Assembly (NCBI GenBank): GCA_015064285.1
Contig: SVSN01000003.1
Span: forward strand, 28,629 to 92,628
Reading direction: 5' to 3'
Source of the DNA: Oscillospiraceae bacterium
GTDB taxonomy: Bacteria > Bacillota > Clostridia > Oscillospirales > CAG-272
Length of the DNA: 64,000 nucleotides
Shown: in pieces, positions 4,295 through 33,105 of the stretch
Position numbering within the stretch: the stretch's first letter is position 1
How the letters are laid out: each line of letters opens with the position of its first letter
Notes under the pieces: model-generated
What the model was told of the DNA's origin: nothing
What the model saw: the letters and a program-made list of their open reading frames with translations, nothing else
Database searches by the model: none
Made by a program: the position numbers and the translations under genes

Positions 4295-5779
4295 ATGAAA
4301 ATCTGCAAGATTACAACACTGCTTCTGCTGCTGTCCATGATCACCGGTATGGCAGCCGGATGCGGCGAAACCGTACAGGAAACAGAAACCTCTGCAGATA
4401 CTGCGGAAACGGAAACCGCACCGACAGAGACAGAACTTACCACCGCTTTACCGGCGGATCTGGATTTCGGCGGAGAATCCGTGACCATCCACGCCAGAGG
4501 AGATGACGACAGTTTTCTGGAAGTATATACGGAAGAACTGAACGGTGATGTACTCAACGACGCCATCTACAACCGTAACGCAGCCGTGGAAGAACTGCTG
4601 AACGTGGATATCATCGGGTACCGCGGCGGCGGCTGGCAGACCTATTATAACGGCAACAGCGACGTACCCAAAATCAAGGCATCCATTACCGCCGGCGACA
4701 ATGCATACCAGTGCATCTCAGGCTGGAACTCCCGTATTTCTTCCCTGGCTATGGAAGGCTATCTCCACGACCTGAATGACAAACCCTATCTGGATCTGGG
4801 ACAACCCTGGTGGAACCAGACCTCCAGAGAAGGACTGACGATCGTTGGAAAAAACTTCTTTGTCACCGGCGACATCAGCTTCCTGACAACTCTGGGCGGT
4901 TCCTATGTGCTGTTCCTCAATGATACTGTAGCGGAAAACTACGGCATCACTGGTCTTGTGGATACGGTTCTGGAAGGCAACTGGACCATGGATGCCATGA
5001 TCGAAGCAACTTCCAAGGTATACGATGACCTGGACGGTAACGGTACCATGAATGAAAGCGACCGGTACGGCTTTATCATCGACTACGATAACAGCGGCGA
5101 CTCCTTCTACACCTCCGCTGATATTCACCAGATCGACGTGGATGAAAAGGGATATCCCACCTTTGCACCTCAGCAGGAACGGGTAAGCACTCTCTGGGAC
5201 AAGCTTTCCGCCTATTATTATAACGGCAGTCTGGTAGGTTCCATGTACCAGAAAAGTGCAGACATCCAGTGTGATATGTTCAAGAACGGTCTGGCACTGA
5301 TGATCCAGAGAGAACTGGACAATGCGCGCACCTATTTCCGCGACATGGACGACAGCTTCACCATTCTGCCCTACCCCAAGCTGGATGCGCAGCAGGATCA
5401 GTACTATACCAATGCCACCACCGGCGTATCCATCTGGTGCGTTCCTGCCGACAACAAGGCTGTGGATACCGCCTGTGCTGTGATGGAAGCCATGGCGTAT
5501 GAAACCTGGAAGAACGTAACCCCCGCCTACTTTGAAACCTGTATGCAGGGAAAATACGCACGCAGCGAAGAAACCGTTGCCATGCTTGAACTCGTAAGAA
5601 ACGGTGTTGTGGTAACCCGTGAATATATCTACAGCCCCTATTTCGGTTCTGCTGAAAAGATTATCATGAAGCTCTCCGGCGACGAGAATCTGCAGATTGC
5701 ATCCTGGTATGCTTCTAATACACAGTCCATTGAACAAACGGTTGAAAACACTGTGGCTCTGCTGGAAGAAATGCAGTAA
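4295..5779 (+). CDS. Extracellular solute-binding-type lipoprotein (LplA/CUT1-like, paralog 1)
   Basis: Lipoprotein signal MKICKITTLLLLLSMITGMAAGC, followed by an acidic T/E-rich linker. The motifs NDAIYNRN, PWWNQ and DLDGNGTMNESDRYGF are recalled from large sugar-binding proteins. The family call is from memory and was not searched. Confidence 0.65.
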   Translation: MKICKITTLLLLLSMITGMAAGCGETVQETETSADTAETETAPTETELTTALPADLDFGGESVTIHARGDDDSFLEVYTEELNGDVLNDAIYNRNAAVEELLNVDIIGYRGGGWQTYYNGNSDVPKIKASITAGDNAYQCISGWNSRISSLAMEGYLHDLNDKPYLDLGQPWWNQTSREGLTIVGKNFFVTGDISFLTTLGGSYVLFLNDTVAENYGITGLVDTVLEGNWTMDAMIEATSKVYDDLDGNGTMNESDRYGFIIDYDNSGDSFYTSADIHQIDVDEKGYPTFAPQQERVSTLWDKLSAYYYNGSLVGSMYQKSADIQCDMFKNGLALMIQRELDNARTYFRDMDDSFTILPYPKLDAQQDQYYTNATTGVSIWCVPADNKAVDTACAVMEAMAYETWKNVTPAYFETCMQGKYARSEETVAMLELVRNGVVVTREYIYSPYFGSAEKIIMKLSGDENLQIASWYASNTQSIEQTVENTVALLEEMQ

Positions 5780-6828: not shown

Positions 6829-8313
6829 ATGAAAAAGCATCTTGCCACTCTGCTAGCTCTTCTGCTGGCTTCTTCTTCCCTGCTGGTATCCTGCGGGGGA
6901 GCGGAAAGTGCCGAAACAGAATCTGTAATCGATACTTCTCCTGCTGAAACCGAACCCGAAGACACGGCGCTGAAGAGTGCCCTTCCGGCAGATCTGGATT
7001 TTGACGGTGCCACTGTATTGATTCATGCCAGAGGTGATGACAACAGCTGGCTGGAGGTCCAGGCGGAGGAATCGACCGGCGAAGTTCTGAACGATTCCAT
7101 CTATAACCGCAACCTGAAAGTATCTGAACAGCTCAACGCGGATGTCCGTGGTTACCGTGGTCAGGGCTGGGCTACTTACTGGGATTCCACCAGCGATATC
7201 AACATGCTCAAGACCTCCATCACAGCCGGTGACAATGCTTTCCAGTGTATTGCCGGATGGAACACTTTCATTGTGCCGTTGGCGCTGGAAAACTATTTCC
7301 ATGATCTGTATGATGCTCCTTATCTGGATCTGGAAAAACCCTGGTGGAACCAATCTGCATCTCAGACGCTGACCATGGGTGGCAAACGCCATTTCGTTAC
7401 CGGCGATATCAGCATTCTGACCATGCTGGGCGGCGCTTATGTTATGTTTGCCAACGACAAAGTCGCTGAGGACAATGGTATCGGTTCCCTTGCTGATATG
7501 GTCAGAGAAGGAACCTGGACTATTGACAATATGAGAGCGATCACCCAGATCCTTTACAATGACCTGGACGGCAACGGAACCATGGACGACAAGGACAGCT
7601 ATGGATTCATTACCGACACCTATAACTCCGCCGACAGCTGGTACACGGCTGCCGATATCCATCAGATCGAGCTGGATGATACGGTCCTGCCTGTATTTGT
7701 TCCGCAGCAGGAAAAGGTTTCCGGTCTGATCGACAAGACCTTTGACTTCTGGCACAACGGCAGTGTTTCCGGCGCATACTGTACAGACGCAGATACCCAG
7801 TGTGTCATGTTCAAAAACAATCAGGCACTGCTGATCCAGCGGGAACTGGACAATGCGCGCACCTATTTCCGTGACATGGAAGACAGCTATACCCTGCTGC
7901 CGTTCCCCAAGTACGATGAACAGCAGGCAAACTACATTAGTGCTGCATATAACGGTGCCACCCTGTGGTGTGTTCCGGTTGACAACCCGGATGTGGACAT
8001 TGCCTGTGCCGTTATGGAAGCCCTGGCGTACGAGACCTTCACCAATGTAACCCCTGTATATTTTGAGACCTGTCTCCAGACAAAGGTTGCCCGAAACAAT
8101 GATACCATTGAAATGCTGACTATCATCCGTGACGGCTGTTGTCTGGACGTGGAATATCTGTACAACTCCGTTCTCGGCAAGACCAATCAGGTTATGCGTG
8201 ATCTTGTTGTTACCAAGAAGAGCAACAATGTGGCATCCTGGTATGCATCCAACGAACAGAAGATCCAATCCACCATTGAAACTACCATTGGCACACTGCA
8301 GGAGATGCACTAA
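6829..8313 (+). CDS. Extracellular solute-binding-type lipoprotein (paralog 2)
   Basis: Lipoprotein signal MKKHLATLLALLLASSSLLVSC. It is closely similar to paralog 1 (ALPADLDFDGATVLIHARGDD vs ALPADLDFGGESVTIHARGDD; LIQRELDNARTYFRDM is identical in both). Confidence 0.65.
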   Translation: MKKHLATLLALLLASSSLLVSCGGAESAETESVIDTSPAETEPEDTALKSALPADLDFDGATVLIHARGDDNSWLEVQAEESTGEVLNDSIYNRNLKVSEQLNADVRGYRGQGWATYWDSTSDINMLKTSITAGDNAFQCIAGWNTFIVPLALENYFHDLYDAPYLDLEKPWWNQSASQTLTMGGKRHFVTGDISILTMLGGAYVMFANDKVAEDNGIGSLADMVREGTWTIDNMRAITQILYNDLDGNGTMDDKDSYGFITDTYNSADSWYTAADIHQIELDDTVLPVFVPQQEKVSGLIDKTFDFWHNGSVSGAYCTDADTQCVMFKNNQALLIQRELDNARTYFRDMEDSYTLLPFPKYDEQQANYISAAYNGATLWCVPVDNPDVDIACAVMEALAYETFTNVTPVYFETCLQTKVARNNDTIEMLTIIRDGCCLDVEYLYNSVLGKTNQVMRDLVVTKKSNNVASWYASNEQKIQSTIETTIGTLQEMH

Positions 8314-27734: not shown

Positions 27735-27825
27735 GACTTCGTAATGCGGCATAGGCACGGGTAAGTCTCAGGTGCCCATGCTCTTTTTACTTTTTGACAT
27801 ATTTCTGTATAGAAGGAGACCGTTT

Positions 27826-29925
27826 ATGGCATCCGTTACCGAATACTTCGGCTGTCTTTCCTTTGACGATTCCGCCATGCGGGCCAGACTGCCCAAAGAT
27901 ACGTATAAATCTCTGAAAAAAACCATTGATGAAGGAAAATCTCTGGATATCAATGTAGCCAACATCGTTGCCAACGCCATGAAGGACTGGGCGATCGAAA
28001 AAGGCTGTACCCACTACACCCATTGGTTCCAGCCGCTGACCGGTGTGACTGCCGAGAAACATGACAGTTTTATTTCCCCTATCGGTGACGGCAATATCAT
28101 TATGGAATTTTCCGGTAAGGAACTGGTACGCGGGGAATCCGATGCTTCCAGTTTTCCCTCCGGTGGACTGCGGGCTACTTTTGAAGCCAGAGGATACACG
28201 GCATGGGACCCTACATCCTATGCATTCATCAAAGGAAAAACCCTGTGTATCCCAACCGCATTCTGCTCCTACGGCGGTGAAGCACTGGATAAAAAAACGC
28301 CCCTTCTCCGCTCTATGGATGCCATCAACCGTCAGGCCAAACGGATTCTGAAGCTGTTTGATCCCAACACCGATGTTGCCTGTATCCGTCCCAGCGTAGG
28401 TCCGGAACAGGAATACTTCCTGGTAGACGAGACCATGTACAACCGCCGGAAGGATCTTATCTTCACCGGCCGGACGCTGTTGGGTGCCAGACCGCCCAAG
28501 ACCCAGGAGATGGAAGACCATTATTTCGGTTCCATAAAGCCCAGGGTGGAAGCCTACATGCAGGAACTGGACGAGGAGCTTTGGAAGCTGGGGATCCTTG
28601 CCAAAACCAAACACAATGAAGCCGCTCCTGCCCAGCATGAACTGGCTCCGATATTCACACAGGTCAATATTTCCACCGACCACAACCAGCTGACCATGGA
28701 GATCATGCAGAAGGTTGCCAGAAAGCATGGTCTGGTTTGTCTGCTGCACGAAAAACCTTTCGCCGGTGTAGCCGGCAGCGGGAAGCACAACAACTGGTCC
28801 CTCTCCACCAACACCGGCATCAATCTGCTGACCCCCGGGGAAACACCGTACGAAAACGCACAGTTCCTGCTGTTTCTTTCTGCTGTGATCCAGGCTGTGG
28901 ACGATTATCAGGATCTTCTGCGTGTTTCTGTAGCTACTGCCGGAAACGACCATCGTCTGGGAGCTCTGGAAGCTCCGCCGGCGCTGGTGTCCATCTTCCT
29001 CGGAGATGAGCTCACCGCGATCCTGGAAGCGTTGGAATCCGGTACCCATTATGACCCGCTGGAAAAAACACAGCTGAAACTGGGAGTTCATGTACTGCCC
29101 AAGCTGCCTAAAGATGCCACGGACAGAAACCGTACCTCTCCTTTTGCCTTTACTGGAAATAAATTTGAATTCCGTATGCTGGGTTCCTCCAATTCCATTT
29201 CCGACACAAACGTGGTTCTGAATACTGCGGTTGCAGAATCACTCCGGCAGTTTGCCGACAAGCTGGAAGCCGCAGCGGATTTTGATGCTGCGCTGAACAA
29301 TCTGATCCGGGAAACTATCCGTGCCCATAAGCGTATCATATTCAACGGGAACGGTTATGATGATGCCTGGATACAGGAAGCAACGAAAGAAAGAGGCCTG
29401 CTTAACCTCCGTTCCACACCGGACTGCATGCCGTATATGCTCTCTGTCAAGAATCTGAAGCTCTTTGCCGATCATAAGGTTTTCACGGAAGCTGAAGTGG
29501 AGTCCCGATATGAGATCACGCTGGAGAATTACTGCAAAACCATCCATATCGAAGCGGCTACCATGATCGATATGGTACAGAAGGAGGTTCTCCCTGCTGT
29601 TATGGCCTATACAGGCAAAGTCTGCGAAACCGGCCTTGCCAAGAAGAATTTCTCTGCTGCCATGGACACATCCTATGAAGAAAAACTGGCCTCCAGACTG
29701 ACAGAGCTCACGCGGCTGACTGATGATGGTATCCGTGCTCTGGAGGCTGCTGTGACAGAAGTAGAAAACATCCGCAATCTGACCGACAAAGCATTCGCAT
29801 ACAAGGAAAAGATCTGTACCCGAATGGAAAGCCTCCGCAGTTACTGTGACGAAGCAGAATCCCTGACTGCCGGCAGCTGCTGGCCTTTCCCCACATATGC
29901 AGACCTTCTGTTTGGTGTACGATAA
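27826..29925 (+). CDS. glnN: Glutamine synthetase type III
   Basis: The roughly 700-aa size and the [21 protein letters not shown] and [10 protein letters not shown] motifs match GSIII (Bacteroides/Ruminococcus type). AAGGAG lies 9 nt before the ATG. Confidence 0.85.
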
Positions 29926-30006
29926 GCGGTTGCGCAAAGGTGCAGTATAAAAATACAGTATTTCTGGCTTTTATACAAATTTTTTCAACTTTTTTTGCAT
30001 CCCCCC

Positions 30007-30035
30007 TTGACAACATCGCTTTAGTGTGCTAAAAT
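30007..30035 (+). promoter_or_regulatory. Sigma-70 promoter of the Tyr-leader / symporter transcription unit
   Basis: TTGACA (30007-30012), 17-nt spacer ending in TGc (an extended -10), then TAAAAT (30030-30035). Confidence 0.65.
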
Positions 30036-30068
30036 ACCGTCAACACAGAAATGAAAGGGATACATGCC

Positions 30069-30122
30069 ATGATGTTCGCATACGCTGCATACTACTATTA
30101 TTATTACTATTACGTTTCATGA
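30069..30122 (+). CDS. Candidate regulatory leader peptide MMFAYAAYYYYYYYYVS
   Basis: The codons read directly are atg atg ttc gca tac gct gca tac tac tat tat tat tac tat tac gtt tca tga. AGGGA lies 8 nt upstream, between a promoter and a terminator. Confidence 0.6.
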   Translation: MMFAYAAYYYYYYYYVS

Positions 30123-30186
30123 TGTAATAGTGATTTGTGGTGCAGTAAATTTGCGACAGGTTATCCCGGCTTTACCTACGAACAAA

Positions 30187-30222
30187 ACGCACAGAATCAC
30201 AATCTGTGCGTTTTTATTTTTT
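30187..30222 (+). terminator. Intrinsic terminator in the 5' leader (attenuator) of the SSS transporter gene
   Basis: acgcacaga (30187-30195) is the exact reverse complement of tctgtgcgt (30203-30211). The loop is 7 nt and TTTTATTTTTT follows. The hairpin lies upstream of, not after, a gene. Confidence 0.8.
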
Positions 30223-30244
30223 CCAGCAGAAAGGACTTCTCGCT

Positions 30245-31822
30245 ATGTTTATCAAAATCTTGCTCCTCGTACTGTTCTTCGCGTCCATGATCGGTGTGGG
30301 CATTTACTGCCACCGCACTGCAGCCAATGTACAGGGATTTGTCCTGGGTGGTCGTTCGGTTGGTCCCTGGCTCACCGCTTTCGCCTATGGTACCTCCTAT
30401 TTCTCGGCTGTAATCTTCATCGGATATGCAGGACAGTTCGGTTGGAAATATGGCGTATCTGCAACATGGGTCGGTATCGGTAATGCCATTATCGGTTCTC
30501 TGCTTGCCTGGGTTCTGCTTGGCCGCCGTACCAGACTGATGACCCAGAAACTGGATTCCAAAACCATGCCTGAATATTTCGGTCAGCGGTTCTCCTCTCC
30601 GGTTCTCAAGATCGTGGCTTCTCTGATCGTTTTCATCTTCCTGATTCCCTACACCGCTTCTCTGTACAACGGTCTTTCCCGTCTGTTCACCATGGCCTTC
30701 GGTATTGACTACGCCTGGTGCGTTATCATCATGTCCATCCTGACCGGGATCTACGTTGTACTCGGCGGATATATGGCTACCGCTATCAATGACTTTATCC
30801 AGGGCTGCATCATGCTGGTGGGGATCGTCGTGGTAATCGCTGCTGTTCTGAATTCCAACGGTGGTTTCATGCAGTCTTTCATCAGCCTGTCTGAAATCAC
30901 TCATGAAACTGTACCGGAACTGAACGGCGCTTTCGTTTCCTTCCTTGGCCCGAAACCTCTGGAACTCCTCGGCGTTGTACTGCTGACCTCTCTCGGTACC
31001 TGGGGGCTGCCGCAGATGGTAGGTAAATTTTATGCCATCAAAAACGAATCTGCTATTTCCAAGGGTACCCTGATCTCCACGATTTTCGCTATTATTGTTG
31101 CCGGCGGCTGTTACTTCCTTGGAGGTTTCGGCAGACTGTACGGTGATGTAATTGAATATTCCGCTTCCGGCAGCCCTGTATATGACAGTATCGTCCCCTC
31201 CATGCTGGCAAGCCTGCCGGACTGGGTAATTGCGATCGTAATCGTACTGGTACTCTCTGCCTCCATGTCCACCCTGTCTTCTCTGGTTCTCACCTCCAGC
31301 TCTACCCTGACACTGGATATGATCGTTCCTTTGTCCAAGAAAAACATCAATGAAAAGCAGCAGATGTTCATCATCCGTGTACTGCTGATTGTATTTATCG
31401 TGATTTCCGCTGCCATCGCCATCATCCAGGCAAAATCCTCCGTTACCTTTATTGCACAGCTGATGGGTATTTCCTGGGGGGCACTGGCCGGTGCGTTCCT
31501 GGCACCCTACCTGTACAGCCTGTACTTCAAGAAAGTCACCAAGGCTTCTGTTTGGGTCAGCTTCATCGCAGGTGTTGCCATTATGACTGCCGACCTGATC
31601 TGCAATTTCACCGGCAATGTTTTCATCAGCCCTTACTTCACTTCCCCCATCAATGCCGGTGTTCTGGCAATGATTGTTGGTCTGGTTCTGGTACCTGTAG
31701 TCAGTCTCTTTACCCAAAAACCGGAACAGTCTCTCGTTGATGATATGTTCACCTGCTACAAGCAGACTGTTGTTGTCCACAGCGCTGTGGCTCTGGCTGA
31801 CGAAGAAGAAGATCACAAATAA
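30245..31822 (+). CDS. Sodium:solute symporter (SSS) family transporter
   Basis: The protein is about 525 aa and polytopic. The N-terminus is FVLGGRSVGPWLTAFAYGTSYFSAVIFIGYAG, and YTASLY and GGYMATAINDFIQG are typical of PutP/PanF-type SSS proteins. The start is set at ATG 30245, downstream of the terminator. Confidence 0.8.
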   Translation: MFIKILLLVLFFASMIGVGIYCHRTAANVQGFVLGGRSVGPWLTAFAYGTSYFSAVIFIGYAGQFGWKYGVSATWVGIGNAIIGSLLAWVLLGRRTRLMTQKLDSKTMPEYFGQRFSSPVLKIVASLIVFIFLIPYTASLYNGLSRLFTMAFGIDYAWCVIIMSILTGIYVVLGGYMATAINDFIQGCIMLVGIVVVIAAVLNSNGGFMQSFISLSEITHETVPELNGAFVSFLGPKPLELLGVVLLTSLGTWGLPQMVGKFYAIKNESAISKGTLISTIFAIIVAGGCYFLGGFGRLYGDVIEYSASGSPVYDSIVPSMLASLPDWVIAIVIVLVLSASMSTLSSLVLTSSSTLTLDMIVPLSKKNINEKQQMFIIRVLLIVFIVISAAIAIIQAKSSVTFIAQLMGISWGALAGAFLAPYLYSLYFKKVTKASVWVSFIAGVAIMTADLICNFTGNVFISPYFTSPINAGVLAMIVGLVLVPVVSLFTQKPEQSLVDDMFTCYKQTVVVHSAVALADEEEDHK

Positions 31823-31832
31823 GAATTTCCAT

Positions 31833-31871
31833 GTATCCGTCCGAAATATCCTCGGGCGGATACGCTTTTTT
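31833..31871 (+). terminator. Intrinsic terminator after the SSS transporter
   Basis: gtatccgtccga (31833-31844) pairs with tcgggcggatac (31852-31863), one G-U pair, followed by gctttttt. Confidence 0.8.
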
Positions 31872-31949
31872 CCGCCAAAAACAGTTCCCTTTCGTCTGCA
31901 TTTGTGATATAATGAAATCAAATCTACCCAGTATACGGAGGTTTCCTTT

Positions 31950-32645
31950 ATGAAGATTCATTTTCTCGGTACCGGTGCGGCAGACTGGGATATCAAAAAC
32001 CCCAATCCCACCAAAAATTTCCGTCGTTTTTCCAGTATCCTGGTGGACGATTCTCTCCTGGTTGATCCCGGTCCGTGTATCCGGGAGTTTATGACCACCT
32101 TTGCCTGTCCCGCACTCCTGGATAACTGCAGACACATCATCAACACCCATCGTCACGGTGACCACTTCCAGCAGGAAATGATCGATTCCCTGCCGGCCGG
32201 TCTTTTCCATCCGATGCACTCCGGCGAAACATTTGAAACCGAAGACCACATCATTTCCGCGTATGCAGCACATCACGGAACAGTCAAAGACGGTGTGCAT
32301 TTCGTTATCGAAAGCAAAGCGGACGGGAAGCGTTTCTTCTACGGCTGCGATGGTGCCTGGTTGTATTACGAAACTGCCTGGAGTCTGATGAAACAGAAAT
32401 TTGATCTGATGATCTTCGACTGTACCATCGGCGATCTGGCCGGTGACTACCGGATTTTCGAACATAATAATGTTGCCATGGTAGCTGAAATGAAAGCCAC
32501 TTTTCAGTCCCACGGATGCTGTAAACAGTTTATGGTCTCCCATATGGCCCGCACACTGCACCCGGCGACCCATGAGGAAGCGGCAGCGGTACTTGCAGGT
32601 TATGGTATCGATACTGCCTGGGACAACCGCATAGTGGTTCTGTAA
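31950..32645 (+). CDS. MBL-fold metallo-hydrolase
   Basis: The start is MKIHFLGTGAA, and the HxHxDH motif is NTHRHGDHF. Confidence 0.75.
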   Translation: MKIHFLGTGAADWDIKNPNPTKNFRRFSSILVDDSLLVDPGPCIREFMTTFACPALLDNCRHIINTHRHGDHFQQEMIDSLPAGLFHPMHSGETFETEDHIISAYAAHHGTVKDGVHFVIESKADGKRFFYGCDGAWLYYETAWSLMKQKFDLMIFDCTIGDLAGDYRIFEHNNVAMVAEMKATFQSHGCCKQFMVSHMARTLHPATHEEAAAVLAGYGIDTAWDNRIVVL

Positions 32646-32655
32646 TCCCATAAAA

Positions 32656-32692
32656 ACAGCCGTGGGCGGACTTATGGTTCCCTCACGGCTGT
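32656..32692. terminator. Hairpin between convergent genes (terminator for the marR-JAB operon on the minus strand)
   Basis: acagccgtg (32656-32664) pairs with cacggctgt (32684-32692). The T-run is present only in the minus-strand reading (complement of taaaaa 32651-32656). Confidence 0.6.
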
Positions 32693-33105
32693 AAATATGT
32701 GTATTCCATTTTGTGATTTACGATGATCTGTCCCAGAAATCTGGGCCTGTCAGGAAAACGTGCTGCCAGAATCTGATTGGTATGAAGATCTTCCGGCGAC
32801 GGTGCCGTACTGCAGGCTGCATGCGTATGTCCCACGAAGAAATAGGAAACACCTTCCATCTGGTAACGGATCTTCGCAGAAAGAAGATTTACCCGGTGAA
32901 GCATTCCCTCCGTCAGCTGCATGGAACGGATAAAATACCGGCTGCGGTTCAGAAATACGGCGTATGTCGTATCCTCCGGAGCCTTCCATAACCGGAACTG
33001 CATATAATACGCCATATACTCCGGGCAGAGAAAACGATTGTCTTCCGCATAACGCATCTCCAAATACGCAAGCAGCTCACTGTCCGGAAATATCGGTGAA
33101 GCCAT
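32683..33105 (-). CDS. JAB/MPN (JAMM) domain protein, RadC-like core
   Basis: GHTHAACSTAPSPEDL fits the JAMM metal motif HxH-x7-S-xx-D. The ATG lies 1 nt after the marR stop codon. Confidence 0.6.
   Translation of the reverse strand: MASPIFPDSELLAYLEMRYAEDNRFLCPEYMAYYMQFRLWKAPEDTTYAVFLNRSRYFIRSMQLTEGMLHRVNLLSAKIRYQMEGVSYFFVGHTHAACSTAPSPEDLHTNQILAARFPDRPRFLGQIIVNHKMEYTYLQP

Follow-up and report, generated by a model that had tools for sequence, protein, structure and literature searches.

A 64,000-nucleotide stretch of DNA from an Oscillospiraceae bacterium (contig SVSN01000003.1; hereafter the window) carries a tyrosine-rich leader between a gene for type III glutamine synthetase (27772–29925) and a gene of the sodium:solute symporter family (SSS, PF00474; 30245–31822). 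The leader combines a promoter, a short open reading frame (ORF) with eight consecutive tyrosine codons and an intrinsic terminator, all on the plus strand, as are the symporter gene and its own signals. An original prediction from the letters of the window recognized the layout of a classical leader-peptide attenuator, and this recognition was borne out: the ORF, the codon cluster, the terminator, the mutually exclusive helices and the stop codon placement that define ribosome-mediated attenuators at the sequence level are all present here and conserved in orthologous leaders. We estimate a probability of roughly 80% that the leader is a ribosome-mediated leader-peptide attenuator through which the availability of charged tRNA-Tyr governs a monocistronic SSS gene.

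Organization of the leader

Transcription would be driven by a sigma-70-type promoter (30007–30035) with a -35 element TTGACA at 30007–30012, a 17-nt spacer and an extended -10 element TGcTAAAAT at 30027–30035, of which TAAAAT occupies 30030–30035 as predicted. In a promoter scan this site scored 11/12 plus the TG and was the top site within 29000–33000; the transcription start is inferred to lie near 30042. A Shine-Dalgarno (SD) sequence, AGGGA (30056–30060), is placed 8 nt before the ATG at 30069, which opens a mini-ORF encoding MMFAYAAYYYYYYYYVS with a TGA stop (30069–30122). Its codons (atg atg ttc gca tac gct gca tac tac tat tat tat tac tat tac gtt tca tga) can be read directly from the sequence and agree with the predicted 17-codon ORF with nine tyrosine codons, eight of them in a row. 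The eight consecutive codons at 30090–30113 form the putative sensing element and one extra tyrosine codon lies at 30081–30083; in total, four codons are TAT and five are TAC. A second in-frame ATG at 30051 lacks an SD and is only ~9 nt from the inferred transcription start. The run is exceptional in its surroundings, as it is the single occurrence of four or more consecutive TAY codons in the window, where shuffled sequences lead to an expectation of 0.02; in the DNA fetched for comparison, runs of at least three TAY codons have a background rate of 0.032 per kb and strand.

The leader RNA folds with an energy of -61.7 kcal/mol (z = -5.2; 0/200 shuffles as good). Region 1 (30084–30116) is the 5' strand of a leader hairpin and consists of 30103–30116, which holds the last tyrosine codons and GTT, and 30084–30095 with GCTGC and ACTAC. 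Region 2 (30121–30146), which contains the invariant AGTGATTT...TGC, can pair either with region 1, through 30121–30134 and 30137–30146, or with region 3, through 30130–30136 and 30140–30143. In the 1:2 hairpin, 30103–30116 pairs with 30121–30134 over 14 bp, followed by 30091–30095 with 30137–30141 and 30084–30088 with 30142–30146 (-22.8 kcal/mol over 30084–30146). The predicted pairing of the last tyrosine codons with the segment behind the stop codon is thus real but longer than proposed. The attenuator itself is an intrinsic terminator (30184–30222) with a 12-bp stem (30184–30195/30203–30214), a 7-nt loop and a T tract reaching to 30222 (-15.4 kcal/mol). It lies ahead of the transporter ATG as predicted, and its T tract ends 22 nt before the ATG at 30245.

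Region 3 (30187–30200) comprises the terminator 5' arm, in which GCAC is invariant, and the terminator loop, in which AATCAC is nearly invariant. The best antiterminator register pairs GUGAUUU at 30130–30136 with GAAUCAC at 30194–30200, and GUGC at 30140–30143 with GCAC at 30189–30192 (-13.6 kcal/mol); this register differs somewhat from the tgatt/tgtg pairing of the original prediction. Folding also separated the three helices by condition: the 1:2 and 3:4 helices appear in the minimum-free-energy fold and the 2:3 helix in co-transcriptional truncated folds, which begin at the stop codon and end with the terminator loop, before the 3' arm is made; with the complete terminator in place, equilibrium folding does not predict the 2:3 helix.

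Conservation among orthologous leaders

The comparative set comprised 176 SSS-family loci, referred to below by L numbers. Scans of genome and metagenome collections contributed at least 160 loci at 61–74% protein identity among the matches listed, and closer orthologs (74–92% identity of the SSS protein) were fetched singly from 12 different clusters at 85% identity. The proposed search of orthologs for a tyrosine-run mini-ORF and a terminator proved productive. All 12 distinct orthologs with at least 74% identity possess the promoter, the tyrosine-run mini-ORF, the 1:2 hairpin and the terminator, and most have an SD. The loci named for this set are L161, L164–L167, L169, L170 and L172–L175, and the leader peptides among them are MKFAFAAYYYYYYYVS, MMFALSAQFYYYYYYVR, MRIHNFAFEYLYYYYYFFTRR, MKKNACYYAYAYYFYFTRFKK, MNRIVFAYAYYYYYSTK, MFTLAYAYYYYYYYYA, MTQFSVYAYYYYYYYFTRR, MANRNFVFAYYYYYYYFDKR, MLNSVFAFAYYYYYYFG, MNSFTFAYVYYYYYFLTK and MFLESARYYYYYCLEK. 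Tyrosine-run leaders were also found at five more distant loci with 66–72% identity (L102, L001, L004/L099, L005 and L042). The leader of L102 belongs to the same core type, which counts 13 leaders in all; the remaining peptides are divergent (L001, MRTCFVYLAYYYRAYYVSGVI; L004, MLHCRKYYYRLYLNR; L005, MTTISHTASYYYYYYRTPLWGWEVYV; L042, MEHLRRNNDYRYYYPYFQVNK), and the helix sequences of L001, L005 and L042 are, by inspection, unlike those of the core type.

An in-frame, tyrosine-rich mini-ORF with an ATG start is present in 17/17 distinct leaders, each with four to nine tyrosine codons. The TTGACA-17-TGnTAnnnT promoter recurs at the matching relative position in those orthologous leaders that were viewed by eye, and reading of the Firmicute-type leaders located an SD-like motif 7–11 nt before the ATG in about 14 of 16, the exceptions being L166 and L173. 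Within the core type, a TATTAC repeat is conserved in the frame of the ORF (13/13). The length of the run ranges from five to eight codons, and TAT and TAC interchange. In the predicted fold, tyrosine codons 5' of the helix do not pair and are still maintained as tyrosine with TAT/TAC interchange; in L005, all six tyrosine codons fall into the unpaired loop of the 1:2 hairpin and still form a tyrosine run. These two observations argue that the run is conserved as codons. The last tyrosine codons are under a dual constraint of coding and structure, because compensatory changes in the helix formed by the tyrosine codons preserve pairing and alter the tyrosine codon in L166 (TAT to TTT, an A-U to U-A change) and L167 (TAC to TCC, an A-U to C-G change).

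The RNA architecture is equally persistent. All 17 untranslated leaders fold into one long imperfect hairpin between the ORF and the sequence behind its stop codon plus a separate terminator; in every case the hairpin pairs the ORF, including the last tyrosine codons, with the segment directly 3' of the stop, and the terminators (-10 to -20 kcal/mol) are followed by T tracts. A structure-anchored alignment of the 13 core leaders (A3) shows 89.7% pairing for the terminated state, compared with 35–51% in slid controls. Compensatory changes occur at nine pairs, and the covariation score of 0.215 exceeds the 0.107 of shuffled alignments (0/500 reach the observed value). RNAalifold independently recovered the xUGCAx helix with covariation.

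The antiterminator was recovered in 16/17 leaders, in which region 2 pairs with region 3 in truncated folds starting at the stop codon; in L005 the same pairing appears when the fold starts behind a ribosome stalled in the tyrosine run. The median z-score of the antiterminator duplex is -2.6 relative to dinucleotide shuffles. Across the 13 core leaders, the antiterminator is 93.8% paired overall and its helix 1 is 100% paired, with 11–48% in slid controls. The divergent leaders reach antiterminator pairing with other sequences (L001, p = 0.014; L042, p = 0.004; L005, p = 0.04 with mononucleotide shuffles), and in L004 the duplex falls short of significance (p = 0.28). Support for the core antiterminator comes from conservation and from compatible, not compensatory, changes. 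The terminator stem covaries, whereas its loop AAUCAC is nearly invariant. This invariance is accounted for by an antiterminator that needs the loop, and a bare terminator offers no explanation for it. The position of the stop codon is consistent with such a switch: GUGAU starts 2–10 nt after the stop in 13/13 core leaders (7 nt in the window), so that, by our own estimate of footprint size, the start of the antiterminator strand is within the footprint of a terminating ribosome, and in L001 the stop codon itself is part of the antiterminator strand.

These structural data bear on the possibility that the leader is a structured RNA sensing something else, such as a small molecule, a protein or a tRNA, in which the TAT/TAC repeats merely supply a helix strand and the ORF is incidental. 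The last three to four tyrosine codons indeed constitute one strand of a 13–14-bp helix, two compensatory changes retain the helix at the expense of a tyrosine codon, and AGUGAUUU and AAUCAC show little or no variation, a trait common in binding sites for ligands or proteins. However, the invariant segments are complementary to each other, as an antiterminator would explain, and the fold is a plain long hairpin plus terminator with no large conserved junction or pocket-like architecture. Moreover, the unpaired tyrosine codons 5' of the helix remain tyrosine codons with synonymous variation, and L001, L005 and L042 retain in-frame tyrosine runs with other helices, L001 and L042 together with SDs. 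Rfam returned no family at the leader at E ≤ 10, T-boxes included; the best scores were obtained by the trpB motif (26.1 bits vs. a threshold of 59, matching the terminator only) and Thr_leader (16.9 vs. 55). No Rfam gathering score, that of the T-box included, was reached anywhere in the 64-kb window, and a scan of 20 ortholog loci (L001–L020) detected no element, T-boxes included, upstream of the SSS genes. We therefore hold an RNA-only sensor to be quite unlikely.

Conservation of the ORF with its SD could also reflect a functional tyrosine-rich micropeptide, for instance a membrane peptide, the precursor of a modified peptide or a partner of the transporter, with the hairpin and terminator just ending or stabilizing its transcript, and the hydrophobic and aromatic motif F-A-Y-A-Y(n)-F does recur in the core type. 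However, outside the tyrosine run the peptides of different leader types are wholly unlike each other (e.g., MLHCRKYYYRLYLNR, MTTISHTASYYYYYYRTPLWGWEVYV and MEHLRRNNDYRYYYPYFQVNK), their lengths and C-termini vary, and the sequence that encodes the FAYA motif also forms a covarying RNA helix (TTCGCA/TGCGAA, xTGCAx). No modification enzymes are encoded adjacent to the leader, and a micropeptide leaves the mutually exclusive, conserved pairings with the terminator unexplained. This explanation appears very unlikely indeed.

The tyrosine-run leader occurs at none of the 118 loci below 66% identity among the loci listed, and leaders enriched in any other amino acid were not found upstream of any of the 176 loci. 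Apparent 'Leu-run' mini-ORFs (LLTLLLLCV) in front of distant SSS genes were rejected, as they represent a conserved promoter read as protein. Six of the distant loci (L054, L055, L057, L058, L076 and L128; ~63–66% identity) share a promoter spacer, CTTGACTTTATTGCTTTTATGCGTTA(C/A)A(C/G)T, ~60–110 nt upstream of the SSS start, and have neither leader ORF nor terminator; the conserved CTTGACTTTATTGCTTTTATGCGTTA spacer may be an operator for a protein regulator. A scan of viral contigs for the signature of region 2 and the loop returned 120 matches with no tyrosine-leader context and one incidental TAY run, which we attribute to chance.

The leader crosses a phylum boundary. L005 (2811–2946) derives from a Bacteroidales metagenome-assembled genome (MAG) and has a leader ORF with six tyrosine codons and a terminator before the orthologous SSS gene; it lacks an SD, and its promoter, by reading, looks Bacteroidetes-style (TAnnTTTG-type). 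The SSS proteins are 70–73% identical across the two phyla, and the comparison suggests horizontal transfer.

Several further observations concern individual leaders. In L173 (2762–2836), an ORF in another frame, MNKYHAEFCICICILLLLLLWMKR, reads the tyrosine run as a leucine run and has AAAGG near its ATG. Phenylalanine codons flank the tyrosine run in most leaders (F-A-Y-A...YYYYY-F; 30075–30116 in the window) and L166 has YYFYF; these codons could confer some sensitivity to phenylalanine or be a mere reflection of paired UU/AA nucleotides. Pairing of the SD region was first seen in the window and in L161 (2808–2816, GGAAAAAC with GGUUUUUC) and might limit re-initiation. As a general feature, an SD-sequestering helix (30057–30062/30162–30167, GGGAUA/UAUCCC) was rejected, because it did not rise above shuffles in 16 leaders (median p = 0.31).

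Transporter family and genomic context

The regulated gene (30245–31822) is preceded by its own SD, AAGGA (30231–30235), 9 nt before the ATG, and encodes a 525-aa sodium:solute symporter that matches PF00474 over profile positions 1–406 of 406 (195 bits, E = 2.3e-57). A terminator with a 13-bp stem and a T run (31832–31871) directly follows the gene, and the transporter unit is monocistronic, as it is at most tyrosine-leader loci. The protein scores 168 bits on the TIGR00813 superfamily model, slightly below the cutoff of 184, and far from the equivalog cutoffs of PutP (210.2 vs. 515.5) and PanF (153.7 vs. 328). By these profile scores the transporter belongs to a distinct SSS subfamily and is neither a PutP nor a PanF equivalog. 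Its many close homologs are found in MAGs of animal-gut Bacteroidales and in uncultured Clostridia and Oscillospiraceae/Ruminococcaceae from the same source, and among solved structures only distant relatives of the SGLT, vSGLT and SiaT type were found, which are uninformative on substrate.

A gene resembling paaK, which encodes phenylacetate-CoA ligase, lies within 3 kb of the SSS gene in 21/176 loci, in 18 of them on the same strand; the encoded proteins score 466–559 bits on TIGR02155, under the cutoff of 646. The order SSS-iorA-iorB-paaK, in which iorA and iorB stand for indolepyruvate:ferredoxin oxidoreductase (IOR), is found in L017 (4588–6893) and L020 (4554–6883). In L078 (4568–6310), iorA alone is annotated and an iorB-paaK layout is inferred from the identical spacing. 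The IOR alpha subunits of these three loci score 713–727 bits, above the equivalog cutoff of 651, and the iorA ORF of L020 overlaps the stop codon of the SSS gene if its earliest possible start codon is taken. Other arrangements are iorB-paaK-ACT-SSS in L140 (11–2302), where ACT denotes a gene for a small ACT-domain protein, and paaK-ACT-SSS in six Bacteroidales-like loci; L006 (1226–2967) is a further locus listed for an SSS gene with IOR, paaK-like or ACT-domain genes. The association of the SSS gene with iorA, iorB, paaK-like and ACT-domain genes thus varies in order and spans both Clostridia and Bacteroidales. One locus unites both contexts: in L166 (4596–6362), the tyrosine leader and SSS gene are followed after 17 nt by paaK and then ACT. 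As the tyrosine-leader loci and the paaK-linked loci form one cluster at 70% identity, the two groups of transporters probably share a substrate class.

The synteny fits either import of aryl acids for anabolism or import of aromatic amino acids for catabolism, and with it the original proposal of 'tyrosine or a tyrosine precursor' as substrate. Rumen bacteria build phenylalanine, tyrosine and tryptophan from phenylacetate, 4-hydroxyphenylacetate and indoleacetate. In Methanococcus maripaludis, aromatic amino acid synthesis from aryl acids is supported by indolepyruvate:ferredoxin oxidoreductase (Porat et al., cited in PMC4162585). From gene context, the cargo most likely imports either tyrosine or an aryl acid that serves as its precursor, such as 4-hydroxyphenylacetate; the iorAB-paaK synteny combined with the predicted induction by tyrosine starvation makes these two compounds jointly the leading candidates. 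A search of the literature, with most subscription journals outside its reach, found no SSS transporter for tyrosine or hydroxyphenylacetate. A comparable gene pair exists in Pseudomonas, where the phenylacetate permease PaaL/PhaJ is a member of the SSS family. In the paa clusters, this permease gene adjoins the gene for phenylacetate-CoA ligase (PMC3224230), a parallel in gene context to the SSS-paaK synteny. In contrast to the setting proposed here, the Pseudomonas systems serve aerobic catabolism under sigma-54 and PaaX control.

The same context helps to judge whether the attenuator might report that translation slows in general, or the condition of tRNA-Tyr itself, for instance through queuosine at position 34 or through antibiotic-induced stalling as in erm and cat leaders. 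The UAU and UAC codons are read by queuosine-modified tRNA, and queuosine affects the decoding of NAY codons. Such a sensor would have an architecture identical to that of a tyrosine attenuator, and the mix of TAT and TAC codons would feel differences in decoding. However, it should tolerate histidine, asparagine, aspartate or any slow codons, whereas 17/17 leaders enrich tyrosine specifically. Furthermore, the cargo family is linked to enzymes of aromatic 2-oxoacids and aryl acids and not to queuosine salvage or resistance, and no resistance gene is located nearby. We consider this alternative quite unlikely.

The type III glutamine synthetase gene and the leader-bearing SSS gene are neighbors in the window and, as a conserved arrangement, in L161, L164, L167/L168 and L173; in L164 an NYN-domain gene sits between the two. 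The minus strand of the locus in the window has just short spurious ORFs and a shadow ORF of the transporter gene, and no tRNA genes were found in the 64-kb window. An inverted repeat with 8–9-bp arms, GCCUCCAG...CUGGAGGC, lies in the glutamine synthetase coding region (29689–29747) and scores weakly, below threshold, against a model of a frameshift element (23.6 bits vs. 45). In the flanks of L001, L004, L005, L042 and L102, six ORFs with Pfam matches are unrelated housekeeping genes and four matched nothing. A RAGATH-18 RNA match in the L019 flank (5580–5640, minus strand) and a tmRNA gene in the L001 flank (7314–7575) are unrelated to the leader.

Relation to known attenuators

The closest counterparts of the leader are the enterobacterial systems pheA/pheL, hisL, trpL, leuL, thrL and ilvL. 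Like the element described here, they combine a constitutive promoter, a short ORF devoted to one amino acid and mutually exclusive 1:2, 2:3 and 3:4 helices with a stop codon that lets the terminating ribosome mask region 2 and an intrinsic terminator ahead of the structural gene. The hisL run comprises seven histidine codons, and the long homopolymeric run in the window most resembles hisL and pheL. In contrast to these leaders, the codon is tyrosine, the cargo is a single transporter gene instead of a biosynthetic operon, and the hosts are uncultured, Oscillospiraceae-like Clostridia and one Bacteroidales MAG instead of enterobacteria. There is no similarity between the two groups in sequence or by covariance model. 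The classical mechanism is reviewed in PMC9413887 and PMC11802643.

Leader-peptide attenuators are also on record for Firmicutes. Histidine leaders have been predicted upstream of hisS and hisZ in Bacilli (PMC2965389) and in the B. cereus group, Peptostreptococcaceae and Erysipelotrichales (PMC9413887). For S. aureus, a leucine-rich attenuator peptide is the subject of PMC5794164. These systems agree with the present leader in mechanism and phylum but sense histidine or leucine and control biosynthetic or tRNA-synthetase genes, unlike a tyrosine leader before a transporter. Ribosome-dependent attenuation is therefore not foreign to the phylum, and the view that this type of control is unusual for a Firmicute was overstated, given the predictions of histidine leaders for Bacilli, Clostridia and Erysipelotrichales (PMC2965389, PMC9413887) as well as the leucine case of S. 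aureus (PMC5794164). The one tyrosine-containing leader found in the literature search is aroR, located before aroF in Corynebacterium glutamicum. It encodes Phe-Tyr-Phe and is reported to respond to limitation of phenylalanine and not tyrosine (Neshat et al. 2014, summarized in PMC11802643). The aroR leader resembles the present leader in its tyrosine-containing peptide and in the attenuation of a gene related to aromatic amino acids but differs in its single tyrosine between phenylalanine codons, its occurrence in Actinobacteria and its biosynthetic target gene.

For tyrosine genes, the RNA-level control cited is the T-box (PMC1262725, PMC2494555). Tyrosine T-boxes of tyrS and tyrosine-related transporters share the logic proposed here, in which uncharged tRNA-Tyr leads to antitermination and tyrosine supply, but a T-box binds the tRNA directly and without translation, unlike a leader-peptide element. 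Another partial parallel is offered by the proline-codon leader ORFs mgtL and mgtP of Salmonella, which control Mg2+ transporter genes. There, too, a leader ORF rich in one amino acid governs read-through to a transporter, but the amino acid is one of several inputs, termination depends on Rho or is linked to a riboswitch and the substrate is unrelated to the amino acid sensed. We found no leader attenuator with a tyrosine run or tyrosine specificity in the literature, a search that left most subscription journals outside and makes a prior description possible.

Proposed mechanism and implications

From these data we infer translation of the ORF, ribosome stalling, polymerase pausing, synchrony of RNA polymerase and ribosome and a response to tyrosine. 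A strong, apparently constitutive promoter would start the transcript near 30042, and a ribosome would load onto the 17-codon leader ORF. When Tyr-tRNA(Tyr) is plentiful, the ribosome would pass the eight tyrosine codons to the UGA at 30120–30122 and cover the start of region 2. After its release, region 2 would snap back to the tyrosine-codon strand, the 3:4 terminator would form and RNA polymerase would stop in the T tract at ~30215–30222. When Tyr-tRNA(Tyr) is scarce, the ribosome would stall in the tyrosine run and mask region 1, leaving region 2 free as region 3 emerges. GUGAUUU (30130–30136) and GUGC (30140–30143) would then capture region 3 and sequester the 5' arm of the terminator, resulting in read-through to the transporter. 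With no translation at all, both the 1:2 and 3:4 helices would form (super-attenuation). Since only the last three to four codons of the eight-codon run lie in the core helix, the response should be graded: early stalls would free the xUGCAx part of region 2 and later stalls all of it.

Several points weigh against this interpretation. The core antiterminator shows no compensatory change and just three one-sided U-A to U.G changes, and at -13.6 kcal/mol it is weaker than the terminator at -15.4 kcal/mol. Equilibrium folding of the full leader with a masked ribosome always kept the terminator and yielded no antiterminator, and the switch must therefore be kinetic, like the classical ones. Kinship among the 13 core leaders inflates the pooled statistics; the last tyrosine codons are also structurally constrained, which places part of their conservation at the RNA level; and in L173 and L166 no SD is well positioned for the tyrosine frame. 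In addition, uncoupling of transcription from translation has been reported for Bacillus subtilis, and if it extends to these Clostridia, a synchronizing pause would be needed. With regard to the cargo, L166 is the only paaK-linked locus among the tyrosine-leader loci, the others having unrelated neighbors, and the 64-kb window yielded no paaK-like gene.

On balance, the comparative evidence indicates that the leader is a real, conserved cis-regulatory element and most likely, as predicted from its sequence, a tyrosine member of the leader-peptide attenuator class with an uncommon cargo. The mechanism itself is textbook; what is new is the predicted specificity for tyrosine, the recurrence over leader types and phyla and the link to aryl-acid metabolism. 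Tyrosine would thereby join the short list of amino acids sensed by leader-peptide attenuation, in a field where a comparative study from 2005 gives T-boxes for tyrosine genes (PMC1262725). The finding also provides a regulatory label for an SSS subfamily found widely among Clostridia and Bacteroidales of the gut and rumen. As a compact element of ~180 nt, the leader is a possible tyrosine-responsive genetic part or reporter in anaerobes.

Predicted control by tyrosine starvation together with the iorAB-paaK-ACT neighborhood leads to a specific substrate hypothesis, tyrosine or 4-hydroxyphenylacetate, which ties to the old observation that rumen anaerobes make aromatic amino acids from aryl acids. 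Extending this, we tentatively propose, as an idea that could well prove wrong, that anaerobes of the gut and rumen use the system for a salvage of aryl acids that is induced by tyrosine starvation. In this scheme, 4-hydroxyphenylacetate, and perhaps phenylacetate, would enter through the SSS protein and be activated by the PaaK-like ligase; reductive carboxylation by indolepyruvate:ferredoxin oxidoreductase would then yield 4-hydroxyphenylpyruvate for tyrosine synthesis. If true, this would be the first tyrosine-specific leader-peptide attenuator, arisen or rebuilt in at least four sequence types and two phyla, and RNA polymerase and the lead ribosome would be synchronized in these Clostridia. 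The conservation of the leader argues that ribosome-polymerase timing, which is debated for Firmicutes, is usable for regulation in Clostridia.

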